Below, one piece after another: positions 2,234 to 33,148 of a stretch of DNA of 38,243 bases. A program made the position numbers and the translations under genes. The DNA is from a virus (taxonomy: Duplodnaviria; Heunggongvirae; Uroviricota; Caudoviricetes): positions 1 through 38,243 of IMG/VR virus record IMGVR_UViG_2721755660_000008, one strand, 5' to 3'. The stretch's first letter is position 1, and every line of letters starts with the position of its first letter. Below the pieces are notes generated by a model, which saw only the letters and a program-made list of their open reading frames with translations, was not told the origin of the DNA and made no database searches.

Positions 2234-3163
2234 TCAGTAGTTATGTACTGAAGGAGGTAATTCTTTATTCTTAAGTCTCATCCATGCGGAAAGATTCGCT
2301 GGTCCGTCTGGCTCATTAATATCAACATCTCGTGTGTGGTTTATTAAAACGTCTCTCGCCATTCCGATAACATACGAGAATTCATTACCGTAGTCGTAGC
2401 ATCTGCCGGAATAGTTCGATTGAATTTGTTTTAATGCCGGATACAGTTCGCGGAATAATGCCTGTGAGCGGTTGGCATAATCCCATAGCCATACAAGGCT
2501 GTTTGCTTCTTTTGCAGAAAGCTCGTCGGTTTTCTTCTCTTGTTTGCCGATGAACTCGCCTTCAAGTGGAACTCGAGCTGCAAGTGACAGTGCTTCGGCA
2601 AACTGCTCCTCACTGATTTCTTTGTATGAACACCCAAAATGAGATTTCAGTGACGACCACATGGTGATCATCGCCTTAGCCTGTTTTTCCTTTGGCAGAG
2701 ACTGACCGCGACTCATGACGAGTTGTTTAATGGCTTCCTGCTGTTCAGTGGTGATTTTACCCGGCAACGCCTTTTTAGCTTTGCGTGGGTTAACTACATG
2801 GCCTTTAGTCCAGTACTCGTATAGCACATCGTCACACTCTTCCTGATACTGGATTACCTTGTCGCGGATTTCAGGGCGGACTTTGTTTGGACTGATGGTT
2901 TGCAGCCAGCCAGCAAGTTTGCGAAGTGCCAAACAAATAATCTCACGGCACTGTTCATCACCAGGAAGCTGCATTGTGATTTTCACAATGGAGGTTTTAA
3001 ACCGTTGCTTTATTTTCGTAAACTGTGAAGCCCAATCCATACCCATACCTTCAACGATAGGTTTCATTGGGGTGTACGGCTCACCGTTGTGATTGACGAC
3101 ATAAAGCTCTGCGCCGTGGAATGGCACGTTGATAGTAGATACTGCTGTTGCTATACTTTTCAT
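2234..3163 (-). CDS. ant: Putative antirepressor (Ant-like)
   Basis: 309-aa ORF immediately downstream of an Arc-like RHH gene in the same orientation (P22 immI arrangement arc-ant-gene 9); N-terminal region resembles phage antirepressor N-domains; GAGGAA RBS. Confidence 0.5.
   Translation of the reverse strand: MKSIATAVSTINVPFHGAELYVVNHNGEPYTPMKPIVEGMGMDWASQFTKIKQRFKTSIVKITMQLPGDEQCREIICLALRKLAGWLQTISPNKVRPEIRDKVIQYQEECDDVLYEYWTKGHVVNPRKAKKALPGKITTEQQEAIKQLVMSRGQSLPKEKQAKAMITMWSSLKSHFGCSYKEISEEQFAEALSLAARVPLEGEFIGKQEKKTDELSAKEANSLVWLWDYANRSQALFRELYPALKQIQSNYSGRCYDYGNEFSYVIGMARDVLINHTRDVDINEPDGPANLSAWMRLKNKELPPSVHNY
3129..3157 (+). promoter_or_regulatory. Putative Psar-like promoter inside the 5' end of ant, firing antisense to ant
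   Basis: TTGATA-17 bp-TATACT on plus strand; predicted start about 3163-3165, directly opposite ant start codon and RBS. Confidence 0.45.
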
Positions 3164-28921: not shown

Positions 28922-28992
28922 AAGATAACTCAAGTTATAAAAAATAGCAATAACCTTTGTTATTTTACTTTGGATAACCGTAGTTATAGATT
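28922..28992. promoter_or_regulatory. OR region: three 14-bp operators of form ATAAC-N4-GTTAT (28925-28938, 28950-28963, 28974-28987) with putative PR (minus, TTGCTA-17-TATCTT) and PRM (plus, leaderless cI)
   Basis: Three inverted repeats spaced 24-25 bp between the divergent cro and cI starts. Confidence 0.55.
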
Positions 28993-28999
28993 TGTGGGT

Positions 29000-29707
29000 A
29001 TGAAAACATTCGCAGAAAGACTAAATGCAGCCATGAGCTCAGCAGGGGTATCACAATCACAGCTTGCTGACATGGTTGGAATATCTCAGCCAGCCATACA
29101 GAAGATGTCGTCCGGTAAAACAAACGGATCTCGCAAGATGGTTGAATTAGCCAATGCTTTAAAAGTGCGCCCTGAATGGCTTAGTTCTGGTATTGGTGAA
29201 ATGAGGGATGGTGCACATGAAGAACCATCCAATGTCCGTGAGTCATCTTTAAAAGCTGTGGTATGGGAAGACATTAAAAGAAACGATGACGAGTTTGTTG
29301 CGTTGCCTCTTCTTAACGTTTCGCTTTCAGCTGGAAGCGGTAGCTGCGAGCTAGAGGAATCATCGGAGTTCTCTTTGGTTTTCAGAAAGCACTATCTGAA
29401 AAAGATGGGAGTATCTGAAAGATCAGCCAAGCTAGTTAGGGTTGTAGGGCAAAGCATGGAACCAACGCTTCACGATGGCGATGTTGTTGGTGTTAACACG
29501 CAAGATACCACCATCAGAGATGGTAAAACCTACGCTATTTGCCAGTCTGATTTGTTACGAGTAAAAACATTAATCGCCACCCCTACATCGGTGATAATCA
29601 GATCAATAAATCGCGAAGAGTACCCGGATGAAGTAATGGATAGAGATGAATTTCATGAAACCGTAAGGATTATTGGCAGAGTATTCTGGTCGTCTCATAG
29701 TTGGTAA
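29000..29707 (+). CDS. cI: CI-type prophage repressor (HTH plus LexA-like S24 peptidase domain)
   Basis: ORF 28970..29707 (TTG) trimmed to ATG at 29000; HTH SQSQLADMVGISQPAIQKM; C-terminal VVGQSMEPTLHDGD catalytic Ser motif. Confidence 0.85.
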   Translation: MKTFAERLNAAMSSAGVSQSQLADMVGISQPAIQKMSSGKTNGSRKMVELANALKVRPEWLSSGIGEMRDGAHEEPSNVRESSLKAVVWEDIKRNDDEFVALPLLNVSLSAGSGSCELEESSEFSLVFRKHYLKKMGVSERSAKLVRVVGQSMEPTLHDGDVVGVNTQDTTIRDGKTYAICQSDLLRVKTLIATPTSVIIRSINREEYPDEVMDRDEFHETVRIIGRVFWSSHSW

Positions 29708-29747: not shown

Positions 29748-30044
29748 ATGGAATTTCTGATAGTTTTTGTTGTTGTTTTGGTCATCATTCTTTTTGTTTT
29801 GCTAAGCATTAGTAAAAAGCTATCTCAAGTGATTGAACATAGCTCTAATCGCGCAAAAGAAGAAGAGCATCTAATTGATATAAAAGAGATTCTCTCTGAT
29901 ATAAAAATCACATTAGATGAAATAAAATACACAACAGATCTAATTGAACAGTATAAAATACCAACCCCAAACGAGAGAAAAGCAATAGATCAATATCGTA
30001 TTGACTTAGAAATCGACGAAATGCTAAGCAAAAGAAAAGACTAA
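29748..30044 (+). CDS. Small membrane-anchored protein of unknown function, 98 aa, rex position
   Basis: GGAGG RBS 40 nt after cI stop, same strand; N-terminal TM helix FLIVFVVVLVIILFVLLSI then charged helical region; AT-rich codons. Confidence 0.6.
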   Translation: MEFLIVFVVVLVIILFVLLSISKKLSQVIEHSSNRAKEEEHLIDIKEILSDIKITLDEIKYTTDLIEQYKIPTPNERKAIDQYRIDLEIDEMLSKRKD

Positions 30045-30049
30045 AAACA

Positions 30050-30078
30050 CCCGGCCTCAGCGCCGGGTTTTCTTTTCC
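30050..30078 (+). terminator. Intrinsic terminator ending the cI operon (tImm-like)
   Basis: CCCGGC-ctcagc-GCCGGG followed by TTTTCTTTTCC. Confidence 0.6.
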
Positions 30079-30254
30079 TGCCGTTCACCACCCAATCACC
30101 CATCATCATCATAGACAAGCATCAAGCAAAAGGTAACACCTTCACCCCGCACGCAAGCCCTCAAACACCAATCAATCAGCAACATTTACAAAAATAAAAT
30201 ACCTTTGTTATCCATCACTTATAACTTATTTACCACAAAATATAAATTAGGTTA

Positions 30255-30283
30255 TTGACCACACCTATAACCTAAGTTATCTT
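30255..30283 (+). promoter_or_regulatory. Putative PL promoter with overlapping OL operator (ATAAC-ctaa-GTTAT at 30267-30280)
   Basis: TTGACC-17 bp-TATCTT; operator half-sites identical to those in OR. Confidence 0.55.
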
Positions 30284-30328
30284 TAAGCCATCAGCAGGAA
30301 GCTGGAAGCCAAACGGAACAGATTGGCA

Positions 30329-30363
30329 GGCTCTTTAACTTCGATGGGGCGCTGACAAAGCGC
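30329..30363 (+). promoter_or_regulatory. nutL-like site (boxA GCTCTTTAA and boxB hairpin GCGCU-GACAA-AGCGC)
   Basis: Located between PL and the N-like gene. Confidence 0.55.
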
Positions 30364-30482
30364 AAACAGATACCAAACGAGATGGGTTTGGCGGTGATGT
30401 GAATTGCAGCTGCAACGACAGCAACCAGAAGATCAGCACCTGGCGCATCACCACCAAAGCCATTTCACATGAGGAAAACATC

Positions 30483-30791
30483 ATGACGGTAATCGTGTAT
30501 GGGAAATCAACATTCGCAGGAAATGCCAAAACTCGCCGTCATGAGCGGCGCAGAAAGCTGGCTATTGAGCGTGATGCTATCTGTAACATCATTGATTCTA
30601 TCTTCGGCACAGACAGTGAGGAGCCTGTTCAGGAAGCCCCAAGAAAGCGTTTAAGCCTTTCTGAAAAAGCAATATCACTCGGCAACATTCGTAACCAAAA
30701 TACCGACGAATGCAGTGGAAGTATTTGCCTGACAAACGTAGCCATTTACGCGGCAGGCTACCGGAAATCAAAACAACTGACGGCGAGGTAA
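30483..30791 (+). CDS. N-type antitermination protein (P22 gp24-like)
   Basis: ORF 30399..30791 (GTG) trimmed to ATG at 30483 with GAGGAA RBS; Arg-rich motif GNAKTRRHERRRKLAIE; C-terminus LYAAGYRKSKQLTAR. Confidence 0.85.
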   Translation: MTVIVYGKSTFAGNAKTRRHERRRKLAIERDAICNIIDSIFGTDSEEPVQEAPRKRLSLSEKAISLGNIRNQNTDECSGSICLTNVAIYAAGYRKSKQLTAR

Positions 30792-30793
30792 TT

Positions 30794-31246
30794 ATGGATT
30801 TAAATAAATTGGAAGCGTTATTAGAAGCATCAGTAAAAAATTTTATATCAGTAATTGATGAAAAAACTGAAGATATTAAGAAGGCAAATATTATCGAACT
30901 TGTAAAAACAAGAGCCAGTACATTTGAGCACCTTCCTGATGATGTCCGGTCAGCGGCAATTCACGTATATGTAACGGCACTAAGCAATATTGAACCCCCA
31001 ATTGATGAAGAATCAAGAGATATTCAGAGAAAACGGTTTGAGATGTTAGCCAGCAACATTATCGCGGGTTTTACACAGCTCTTAACAAAAGAGCCTGCCA
31101 GTGAAGCTGTTCGCCAGCAGGCTCAGGTAATGATTAATCAGGCAGAAACTATTTCACGTGAGCGAAAAGCATTTGATAAATCGGTTTCTGAACTTCCAAC
31201 ACCTCAACCACAGCCGCTGAACCTTCCTTCTCAACAAACTGAATAA
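30794..31246 (+). CDS. Hypothetical helical protein, first gene after N, 150 aa
   Basis: ORF 30710..31246 trimmed to Met29 (MDLNKLEALLE) 3 nt after N stop with GAGGT RBS; AT-rich 5' half. Confidence 0.55.
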   Translation: MDLNKLEALLEASVKNFISVIDEKTEDIKKANIIELVKTRASTFEHLPDDVRSAAIHVYVTALSNIEPPIDEESRDIQRKRFEMLASNIIAGFTQLLTKEPASEAVRQQAQVMINQAETISRERKAFDKSVSELPTPQPQPLNLPSQQTE

Positions 31247-31403
31247 CTTCATCAAGATGCTTTTTTGCATGTGATGATTGCTCAGGTGGCATAGCAGAAA
31301 CAATCGAAATGATTGCTTGCTGGAGCGCGAGGTTTTCAGTGCTCAGTTTTGAAACTCTGTCGTTTAAATCCTCAATGATTTTAACAAGAGATACATCTGA
31401 CAT
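31149..31403 (-). CDS. Hypothetical protein, 84 aa, oppositely oriented within the PL operon
   Basis: ORF 31149..31445 trimmed to Met15 (MSDVSLVKIIEDL) with AAGGAG RBS 5 nt upstream; 3' end overlaps 3' end of the 150-aa gene by 98 nt. Confidence 0.5.
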   Translation of the reverse strand: MSDVSLVKIIEDLNDRVSKLSTENLALQQAIISIVSAMPPEQSSHAKKHLDEVIQFVEKEGSAAVVEVLEVQKPIYQMLFAHVK

Positions 31404-31415
31404 GTGAACTCCTTC

Positions 31416-31463
31416 TTTTGACTGTGGAAACAACAGTCTACCCATTTCCTTTGACTGTGGAAA
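31416..31463. repeat. Two 14-bp direct repeats TTTGACTGTGGAAA (31417-31430, 31450-31463), 33-bp period, in the divergent intergenic region
   Basis: Exact 14-bp duplication between the 84-aa gene start and the membrane protein gene. Confidence 0.6.
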
Positions 31464-31542
31464 GTGAAGGAACCACCGAGCCTGATGTGGTTAAAAGACA
31501 GGCACAATCTCTACTACCGCAATCCACTATTTAAGGTGATAT

Positions 31543-31992
31543 ATGGAAGAACAAGCAAACAAGATTCTCGTAGAACTACTGCAAAAAGCCAGTAATGGAA
31601 TAGACGCGGCTGTTTCATTTAGCCAAGCACAGATTCCTGATGTTGTTCATCAGTTGCTGCTATGGAATATGGTTGACAGTCTGATTAAAACATTAATTGC
31701 CATTCTAACAATCCCACTGGTTTTCTGGTTTATGAAGAAGCAGTGCCAAAGAGTTGAGACAGGTAAAATCGGTGATGAAGGATATTCATGGGAGAAGGGA
31801 AATCCCAAATACAGGCCGACAATGGTTTGGGATAGCAAAGGTGATATTAATCTTATTATCATGCCATTAGTTGGAGTTTTGGCTCTGTGGGGGATTTTTA
31901 TTATTAGTGCAGTAACCAATATGACATGGTTAAAAATTTTGCTGGCTCCAAAGCTTTACCTTATCGAATATGCAGCATCATTGGTTAAGTAA
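31543..31992 (+). CDS. Two-TM membrane protein of unknown function, 149 aa (candidate exclusion/abortive-infection moron)
   Basis: AAGGTGA RBS; hydrophobic segments LIKTLIAILTIPLVFWFM and INLIIMPLVGVLALWGIFIISAV; AT-rich codons; own terminator downstream. Confidence 0.6.
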   Translation: MEEQANKILVELLQKASNGIDAAVSFSQAQIPDVVHQLLLWNMVDSLIKTLIAILTIPLVFWFMKKQCQRVETGKIGDEGYSWEKGNPKYRPTMVWDSKGDINLIIMPLVGVLALWGIFIISAVTNMTWLKILLAPKLYLIEYAASLVK

Positions 31993-32179: not shown

Positions 32180-33148
32180 ATGAGTGAAGTAACAGATTTA
32201 GTTGTTATTGAAAAAGCAAATGCAATGACTGTATTTCAGTCTGCCGACCAGATTGAAGAAATCCTTCAAAAGGTTGAACGCGAAGTTATGTCCTTTGTGC
32301 CTGATATCACAACGGCAAAGGGCAGAAAGGAGATCGCTTCTCTGGCGTATAAAGTTGCGCAGACGAAAACATATCTCGATGGTCTTGGCAAAGACCTTGT
32401 TGCTGAACTGAAGGAAATTCCAAAGCTAATTGATGCCAACCGCAAGACAGTGCGTGATCGCCTTGATGAGCTGAAAGCCAAGGCACGCCAGCCTCTTACT
32501 GATTATGAGGAAGAACAGGCGCGGATTAAAGCTGAAGAAGAAGCTAAGGCAGCAGCTGAAGCTCTCGCAAAGCAAATTGAGTCTGACCATGAAATAGCGA
32601 TTTTGATGGATCGCGAATTTGACCGCCAAAGAGAAGAGGCAAGACTCAAAGCGGAGCAGGAAAAGCGAGAGCATGAAGAACGCTTAAAAAGAGAAGCTGA
32701 AGAGAAAGCCAGAGCAGAAGCCGAAGCAAAGGCAAAAGCCGAAATTGAAGCAGCAGCAAGGCGAGAAGCAGAAGCTAAGGCCGCAGCGGAACGTGCAGAG
32801 CGTGAACGCATTGAAGCAGAGCAACGAGCACAGCGCGAAGCAAAAGAGGCAGCAGAACGAGCTGAAAGAGAAAAGCAGGCGGCAATTGAAGCAGAACGCC
32901 GAAAAGCACAGGAGGAGGCTGAACGAATCCGGCGCGAGGCTGAAGCAAAAGAGCAAGCCAGAATAGCAGAAGAAAAAAGAATCAAGGAAGAAGAAGAGCG
33001 TAGAGCAAAGGATAAAGCTCACCGGAAAGAAGTAAATAACAAAATACTTGCTGACCTTATCAAGGTTGGTGCATCAGAAGATGTTGCTAAAAATATCATA
33101 ACAGCCATCGTAAAAGGCGAAGTATTCGCAACAAAAATAACCTACTAA
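32180..33148 (+). CDS. Hypothetical protein with ~150-residue E/R/K/A-rich coiled-coil repeat region, 322 aa
   Basis: GGAGG RBS; low-complexity central region (AEAKAKAEIEAAARREAEAKAAAERAERERIEAEQRAQ...). Confidence 0.7.
   Translation: MSEVTDLVVIEKANAMTVFQSADQIEEILQKVEREVMSFVPDITTAKGRKEIASLAYKVAQTKTYLDGLGKDLVAELKEIPKLIDANRKTVRDRLDELKAKARQPLTDYEEEQARIKAEEEAKAAAEALAKQIESDHEIAILMDREFDRQREEARLKAEQEKREHEERLKREAEEKARAEAEAKAKAEIEAAARREAEAKAAAERAERERIEAEQRAQREAKEAAERAEREKQAAIEAERRKAQEEAERIRREAEAKEQARIAEEKRIKEEEERRAKDKAHRKEVNNKILADLIKVGASEDVAKNIITAIVKGEVFATKITY

Follow-up and report, generated by a model that had tools for sequence, protein, structure and literature searches.

Are two convergent genes that share their 3′ ends both real, or has one of them been misassigned? 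The question is raised by positions 30794-31403 of a 38,243-nucleotide stretch of DNA from a virus of the class Caudoviricetes (IMG/VR record IMGVR_UViG_2721755660_000008, positions 1 to 38,243; the whole of it is referred to here as the window), in which an open reading frame (orf) of 150 codons on the plus strand begins directly after a gene for an N-type antiterminator and runs into the 3′ end of an orf of 84 codons on the minus strand. An earlier reading of the letters without database searches (the sequence-only reading) credited each orf with a plausible ribosome-binding site (RBS), put the overlap at about 98 base pairs, and offered two possibilities: that both genes are real and perhaps coupled in antisense, or that one is false. 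Comparison with related loci speaks, on the whole, for two real genes that make up one cassette, conserved in the early-left (pL) arm of lambdoid prophages, and that would be expressed in opposite phases.

The region comprises the immunity and early-left part of a lambdoid prophage, the plus strand being the direction of transcription from pL. The plus-strand orf (30794-31246) starts with ATG at 30794, two nucleotides past the TAA of N, and ends with TAA at 31244-31246; its RBS, GAGGT (30784-30788, plus strand), is embedded in the last codons of N. Among the pL genes it comes directly after N, to whose stop its start is coupled. The minus-strand orf (31149-31403) starts with ATG at 31403, five nucleotides after the RBS AAGGAG (31409-31414, minus strand), and ends with TAG at 31151-31149. 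The stretch that codes on both strands (31149-31246) is 98 nucleotides long with both stop codons included, so that the convergent arrangement, the size of the overlap and the presence of an RBS before each orf all stand as first described.

Selection on the two reading frames

The DNA comparison covered 19 distinct loci, close to the window or moderately diverged from it, and was extended to more deeply diverged relatives in Hafnia, Enterobacter and Trabulsiella and in metagenomic viral contigs; individual loci are designated by L numbers. In the overlap, the first position of a plus codon faces the first position of a minus codon, the second plus position faces the third minus position, and the third plus position faces the second minus position, and therefore the two frames predict opposite places for substitutions to pile up. 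When minimal substitution counts were listed in that order (plus 1/minus 1, plus 2/minus 3, plus 3/minus 2), the segment 30794-31084 gave 18/14/30, with plus third positions the most variable, as expected of a coding plus frame; the segment 31247-31403 gave 31/75/10, a strong coding signature of the minus frame; and the overlap 31149-31246 gave 16/35/12, the minus frame being dominant. The ratio of nonsynonymous to synonymous differences per site (pN/pS), computed by the Nei-Gojobori method, was 0.15-0.34 for the minus frame in each segment including the overlap, and for the plus frame 0.37 in the N-terminal domain and 0.38-0.53 in codons 98-118. Both frames are thus conserved in related prophages, a check that the sequence-only reading had itself suggested and that favours the first of its two possibilities. 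The second, that one orf had been misassigned, is rejected, since purifying selection acts along the whole minus frame and on plus codons 1-118.

Synonymous change in the minus gene was measured as the fraction with different codons among sequence pairs sharing the same amino acid. This fraction was 0.59 in minus codons 1-52, which lie outside the overlap, and 0.53 in codons 53-65, which face plus codons 139-150, and it fell to 0.35 in codons 66-84, which face plus codons 119-138. The suppression of synonymous change in codons 66-84, at 0.35 as against 0.57-0.59, had a permutation P of 0.0008 with eight deep lineages and of 0.002 with all 19 sequences. Minus codons E70, V71 and Q72, which show zero synonymous variation, face a plus-strand motif, (V/L)-S-E-(L/F), that is common to the small orfs described in the next section. 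The plus-strand stop at codon 139 arises through a V66I replacement that is conservative in the minus protein, which argues that the minus protein prevails where the two frames conflict. The alignments indicate that the minus protein has priority in the overlap and that the plus frame is a weaker second constraint extending to about codon 135-138 (motif V/L-S-E-L), while plus codons 139-150 are an unconstrained, dispensable extension that is free to vary or to be lost.

Origin of the plus-strand orf and of the overlap

Relatives of the plus-strand protein occur in forms of 150, 138, 123 and 99 amino acids. The 138-residue form ends 12 codons earlier than that of the window, at a stop in codon 139 that is present in about half of the close relatives, and the 123-residue form joins an unrelated N-terminus to the same last 50 or so residues. 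The orf of the window divides into an N-terminal domain (codons 1-97, 30794-31084, plus strand), which is a coding sequence in PGAP annotation and carries the third-position excess, and a C-terminal module of about 53 amino acids (codons 98-150, 31085-31246, plus strand), which is homologous to a free-standing small orf of deeper lineages. The free-standing orf has 54-68 codons and is found in L017, L014, L015, L034/36, L037/38, L039, L040 and L041, preceded by the strong RBS gagaggtNNNNatg and variants of it. In all nine deep lineages the small orfs converge on the 84-codon gene in the same relative frame, with an overlap of 89-134 nucleotides. A second, independent in-frame fusion of the module is present in L018/19, and the two fusions have different N-terminal domains.

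On this comparison the plus-strand orf is a fusion, the C-terminal third of which descends from an ancestral small orf of the cassette that passes through the terminator of the minus gene and about 95 nucleotides into its 3′ end. The overlap is an old arrangement that this small mobile cassette has conserved, and no accident of annotation. It also exceeds what chance would explain. When the minus gene was resampled synonymously, the antisense frame remained open for at least 86 nucleotides with a probability of 0.06-0.6 per lineage. It is open in nine of the nine deep lineages; the product of the probabilities, calculated by hand under uniform codon choice, is about 1e-4, an estimate in the style of an upper bound that somewhat overstates independence, since the nine lineages are not fully independent.

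Terminator of the minus-strand gene

An intrinsic terminator is predicted by folding at 31084-31124 on the minus strand. Its hairpin begins 25 nucleotides 3′ of the minus stop codon and has an 11-base-pair stem (31091-31101/31114-31124) followed by UUUUGUU, all of it inside plus codons 98-111. Across 11 lineages the seven consensus stem pairs are 100% paired, four of them with compensatory changes, a result matched by 0 of 500 shuffles. Of the 77 stem cells, 13 are G-U pairs in minus-sense RNA that would be A-C mismatches in plus-strand RNA, and the plus strand has no U-tract past the hairpin; the structure is therefore predicted to be a one-way terminator serving the minus gene. The consensus scan did not report it (the loop is 12 nucleotides long), and no RNA family of Rfam was found in 30000-31800. 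Hairpin, U-tract and covariation together provide the minus gene with a factor-independent terminator of its own, one of the features by which morons are defined.

With a terminator inside the partner gene and a hierarchy of constraint that can be measured, the locus is a clean, comparatively verified example of antisense dual coding in a phage.

Putative promoter, direct repeats and the position after N

A putative promoter and the 5′ leader of the minus gene occupy 31409-31463 (minus strand), with a -35 hexamer TTTCCA (31458-31463), a 17-nucleotide spacer, a -10 hexamer TAGACT (31435-31440) and a predicted transcript start at about 31428. The -10 hexamer aligns with TAAACT, the -10 of the annotated sieB promoter of phage P22. 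Direct repeats TTTCCACAGTCAAA (31450-31463 and 31417-31430, minus strand) cover the -35 hexamer and the start and leader of the minus gene. The direct repeat TTTGACTGTGGAAA has a period of 33 nucleotides and is kept in all lineages of the family down to about 35% protein identity; the hexamers, their 17-nucleotide spacing and the repeats are kept in every lineage, and L004 has lost exactly one copy of the repeat by a deletion of 33 nucleotides.

The same combination of promoter and repeats precedes unrelated small genes in two other loci, L003 (2787-2969, minus strand, 60 amino acids) and L042 (1328-1492, minus strand, 54 amino acids). These genes belong to Escherichia coli prophages, share the motif A-A-x-Q-[IV]-x-x-E-L-x-[KR]-A-G and have no Pfam match. 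A role of the repeats as operators for the 84-amino-acid protein itself is disfavoured, as the same repeats precede this unrelated cargo. The slot after N therefore takes alternative cargo, together with a portable promoter.

The sequence-only reading pointed out that the first gene after N is often one for early anti-defence or host-takeover functions; the plus-strand protein matches no known family, and the opposite strand at this place offers the more informative context. In lambda imm434 and in the curated record of P22, this slot is that of sieB, which lies directly past N (gene 24) on the opposite strand with a mapped promoter of its own. The 84-codon gene likewise lies after N, on the opposite strand and behind its own promoter-like site, and its position is constant in all members of the family. 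A conserved linker (31470-31545), which in lambda and P22 is situated upstream of the sieB promoter, has the RBS and ATG (31543) of the next pL gene at its end. Its identity is 93-99% with lambda, lambda imm434, P22 and some 130 further phage records, and it may serve as a recombination joint or belong to the control region of sas/sieB. A hairpin, AACCAC-N10-GTGGTT, is contained in it. The sieB slot after N would thus seem to accept cargo in general: several unrelated small genes occupy it, served by a portable promoter cassette that is marked by its characteristic direct repeat. By its sequence features, the 84-codon gene is an autonomous unit opposed to pL, consisting of a sieB-type promoter-like site, a short leader with a strong RBS, the coding region and a predicted one-way terminator.

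The 84-amino-acid protein

An exhaustive profile search of 1.84 billion representatives yielded a family composed solely of proteins of 84-87 amino acids, with identity down to 29%. An AlphaFold2 model built with 24 diverse sequences has a mean predicted local distance difference test score (pLDDT) of 90.3 and consists of three helices (residues 2-37, 40-60 and 63-81); an earlier AlphaFold run on 13 close sequences had reached 62.7. The protein is confidently predicted from the model to be a soluble, hydrophilic three-helix unit. The position of its gene makes an accessory factor for exclusion or defence, expressed by the prophage, its most likely role.

Several candidate identities were considered. 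Searches of Pfam, PHROGs, PADLOC and NCBIfam with both proteins, two neighbouring orfs and two distant 84-amino-acid members returned only sub-threshold coiled-coil noise; Pfam gave no match for the small orfs or the alternative cargo genes, and PDB sequence profiles gave none for either family. Herpes_BLRF2 (PF05812) is matched weakly by 19 of the 24 members (best 2e-4), with the N-terminal helix only, and the protein of the window scores 18.1 bits against a Pfam gathering threshold of 25.8 bits. An AroQ chorismate mutase fold is supported neither by the Pfam CM_2 signature nor by a significant structural match. Identity with SieB was also rejected: homology is absent, BLASTP against P22 SieB gave E = 4.8, and PHROG, Pfam and PADLOC gave no match.

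Proposed expression of the two genes

Antisense coupling of the two genes, as the sequence-only reading had suggested, is plausible from this arrangement. In the lysogen, with pL repressed, the minus gene would be transcribed and its transcription would halt at the terminator within the silent plus-strand orf. Upon induction or infection, N-modified polymerase from pL would pass the hairpin, which is predicted not to terminate in that direction, and cross the minus gene and its promoter. The minus gene could then be shut off by collision, by promoter occlusion and by full-length antisense pairing, while N, the plus-strand protein and later genes would be made. The two proteins would thus be produced in opposite phases, one in lysogeny and the other in lytic growth driven by pL.

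In P22, sieB is expressed by the prophage, and sas, an antisense RNA acting in cis, controls it (PMC12197685, PMC7067206, PMC10461980); it is antisense transcription from the lytic strand that governs its expression (PMC12197685). The proposed logic of the minus gene, on in the lysogen and off when pL is active, matches that reported for P22 sieB.

A further step would be to regard the 84-amino-acid protein and the small convergent orf, represented in the window by the C-terminal module of the plus-strand protein, as a functional pair: an effector of the lysogenic phase, for example for exclusion or abortive infection, and an antidote made from pL in the lytic phase. The logic would resemble that of SieB, Esc and sas, with unrelated proteins and true dual coding, and the V/L-S-E-L segment would co-evolve with the C-terminal helix of the 84-amino-acid protein through their shared nucleotides. 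Such a pairing is rather unlikely at present; were it to hold, the two proteins would constitute a compact system of prophage exclusion that is new.

Alternative explanations

Several observations weigh against two real genes with opposite phases of expression. The putative minus promoter is a weak match to the consensus (8/12), below the threshold of the consensus scan and unreported by it, and promoter activity, termination and mutual exclusion are all predictions from the sequence. For both proteins, Pfam, PHROGs, PADLOC, NCBIfam, PDB sequences and known folds gave no match. As the two orfs overlap, they are physically bound to occur together, and the constraint on the plus-strand tail appears to be weak. 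The remaining points of this kind concern that tail, and are best considered together with the explanation that makes most of them.

If nothing but the minus gene counts within the overlap, the last third of the plus-strand orf, like the small orf of other lineages, would be a run-on that is translated but functionless, held open by the codon content of the minus gene and by the terminator sequence. The pN/pS of the plus frame in the overlap, where its "silent" sites are second positions of the minus frame, is close to 1 over 31148-31207 (up to codon 138) and reaches 1.8 past that point. The plus frame ends at varying points, 59, 86, 92, 95 or 131 nucleotides into the minus gene, and about half of the relatives lack its last 12 codons. 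The 99-amino-acid proteins (P0009-P0015, L003) consist of the N-terminal domain alone with another C-terminus, an indication that this domain can do without the module. A conserved motif of the small orfs, K-(K/E)-P...Q-A, coincides with the U-tract and stem arms of the terminator and may reflect constraint on RNA instead of protein, which would account for the K-K-P/Q-A residues of a run-on, and chance openness is as high as 0.3-0.6 per lineage. However, the start codon, the strong RBS and a frame of 54-68 codons are kept in nine deep lineages at which synonymous sites are near saturation, and the hand-calculated joint probability of openness is that of about 1e-4 given above. Moreover, the minus gene shows reduced synonymous variation solely in the part whose plus frame is still common to all variants (P about 0.001), and both independent fusions are in frame. 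A run-on without function is doubtful, then, though it deserves to be taken seriously.

Alternatively, the scarcity of synonymous variation in the last codons of the minus gene could be due to a nucleotide-level element, such as an RNA structure, an RNase site or an antisense pairing site, and not to selection on the plus-strand protein. The region adjoins the conserved terminator, the plus-frame pN/pS there is not below 1, and the analogous locus of P22 is under the control of a cis antisense RNA (PMC12197685), but the Rfam search over 30000-31800 was empty, no conserved pairing was seen outside the terminator stem, and the invariant minus codons coincide with the conserved plus motif (V/L)-S-E-(L/F), all of which makes such an element an unlikely cause.

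That one orf was simply mis-called, the minus orf being a chance antisense frame in a longer plus gene or the plus orf being spurious, is highly improbable: RefSeq (PGAP) annotation has both orfs in L002 only and the plus orf alone in L001, L004 and L005, and neither protein belongs to a known family, but the minus frame has a pN/pS of 0.15-0.34, positional variation of 31/75/10, a model with a pLDDT of 90 and homologues of the same length at 29-40% identity, and occurs without the plus N-terminal domain, while the plus frame has its third-position excess and a pN/pS of 0.37 and is intact where the minus gene is disrupted (L005, L016). The annotation ambiguity is settled in that both genes deserve to be called; of five annotated relatives that possess the 84-codon gene, three have it left out in RefSeq.

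Comparison with known systems

The cassette of two convergent genes may be compared first with sieB/esc/sas of P22 and lambda, in which SieB, made by the prophage, excludes superinfecting phages while Esc and sas afford self-protection. In both systems N (gene 24) is directly followed by a gene that converges on it from the other strand (here, the 84-codon gene), behind a promoter of its own in sieB and a promoter-like site in the cassette. A direct repeat lies over the -35 hexamer and the transcript start in the same layout but in a different sequence, TTCCACAGTCAAA in the cassette and ACCCCTACAG in the two phages. The linker upstream is shared at 93-99% identity. The proteins differ, SieB having 192 amino acids and the minus protein 84, with a soluble, helical structure predicted for the latter; and no internal in-frame start of the Esc type was identified in the 84-codon gene. 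Unlike sas, which is a non-coding RNA over the 5′ end of sieB, the pL-strand partner here is a protein-coding orf that overlaps the 3′ end. In lambda and P22, in contrast, N and sieB abut without overlap.

The 84-codon gene also resembles the morons of lambdoid phages, which are autonomous units of promoter, gene and terminator expressed from the repressed prophage. It is likewise small, has a promoter-like site and an intrinsic terminator to itself, stands against the direction of the operon around it and is mosaic in occurrence, the same promoter cassette being combined with different cargo genes. Unlike a moron, its terminator and 95-98 nucleotides of the gene also code for the neighbouring operon gene, and the overlap is conserved, not incidental.

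Convergent transcripts that overlap at their 3′ ends, with the possibility of antisense control, are familiar from temperate phages and prophages in lambda cII/OOP and in type I toxin-antitoxin pairs such as txpA/RatA. One partner in these systems is a non-coding RNA, and the toxin of a type I pair is a small hydrophobic peptide. In the cassette, by contrast, both partners are hydrophilic protein-coding orfs and neither resembles a membrane toxin. Classification as a type I toxin-antitoxin system with 3′ overlap was rejected on the same grounds, the modelled protein being soluble, the partner being a conserved orf with an RBS, and Rfam giving no match. The cassette is thus of a kind already known, a sieB-slot or moron-type accessory unit convergent with pL; what is unusual is the conserved stretch of dual coding.

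Occurrence of the cassette

The segment is rare, being present in 12 of 5,426 complete E. coli genomes. Comparison of the 84-amino-acid protein and the plus N-terminal domain with 50,697 phage records by tblastn gave zero matches, and the cassette is therefore known only from prophages. The 84-codon gene is found without the plus N-terminal domain in L017 and L037-L041. In L005 (about 3084-3139), an IS1203 insertion stands in place of the promoter and first nine codons of the 84-codon gene, and in L016 (1002-1223), codons 1-58 of that gene are deleted beside an IS3-type transposase; the plus-strand orf is intact in both. Either gene can occur without most of its partner, but never without the shared overlap.

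Surrounding genes

The gene for a cI-like repressor is at 28970-29707. Between it and N, the consensus scan found a pL-like promoter, TTGACC-17-TATCTT (30255-30283, plus strand), which is predicted to drive N and the plus-strand orf. N itself (30483-30791, plus strand) encodes 102 amino acids and was identified by Pfam N_peptide (1.5e-38) and PHROG 271 (4e-39).

An orf of 98 amino acids (29748-30044, plus strand) with a membrane-like N-terminal segment (PHROG 18389, 1.8e-61) directly follows the repressor gene, where lambda has rexAB. The next pL gene past the cassette encodes 149 amino acids with hydrophobic segments (31543-31992, plus strand; PHROG 3054, 1.4e-62) and is again found beside the cassette in L020. 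Farther along, an orf of 322 amino acids (32180-33148, plus strand) has about 200 central residues that are extremely rich in E, A, K and R and repetitive, presumably forming one long helix; a protein of the same length is called in L021. On the promoter side of the cassette in L017, L021 and L038, the pL strand carries a gene with an Nmad5 domain (PF18757).
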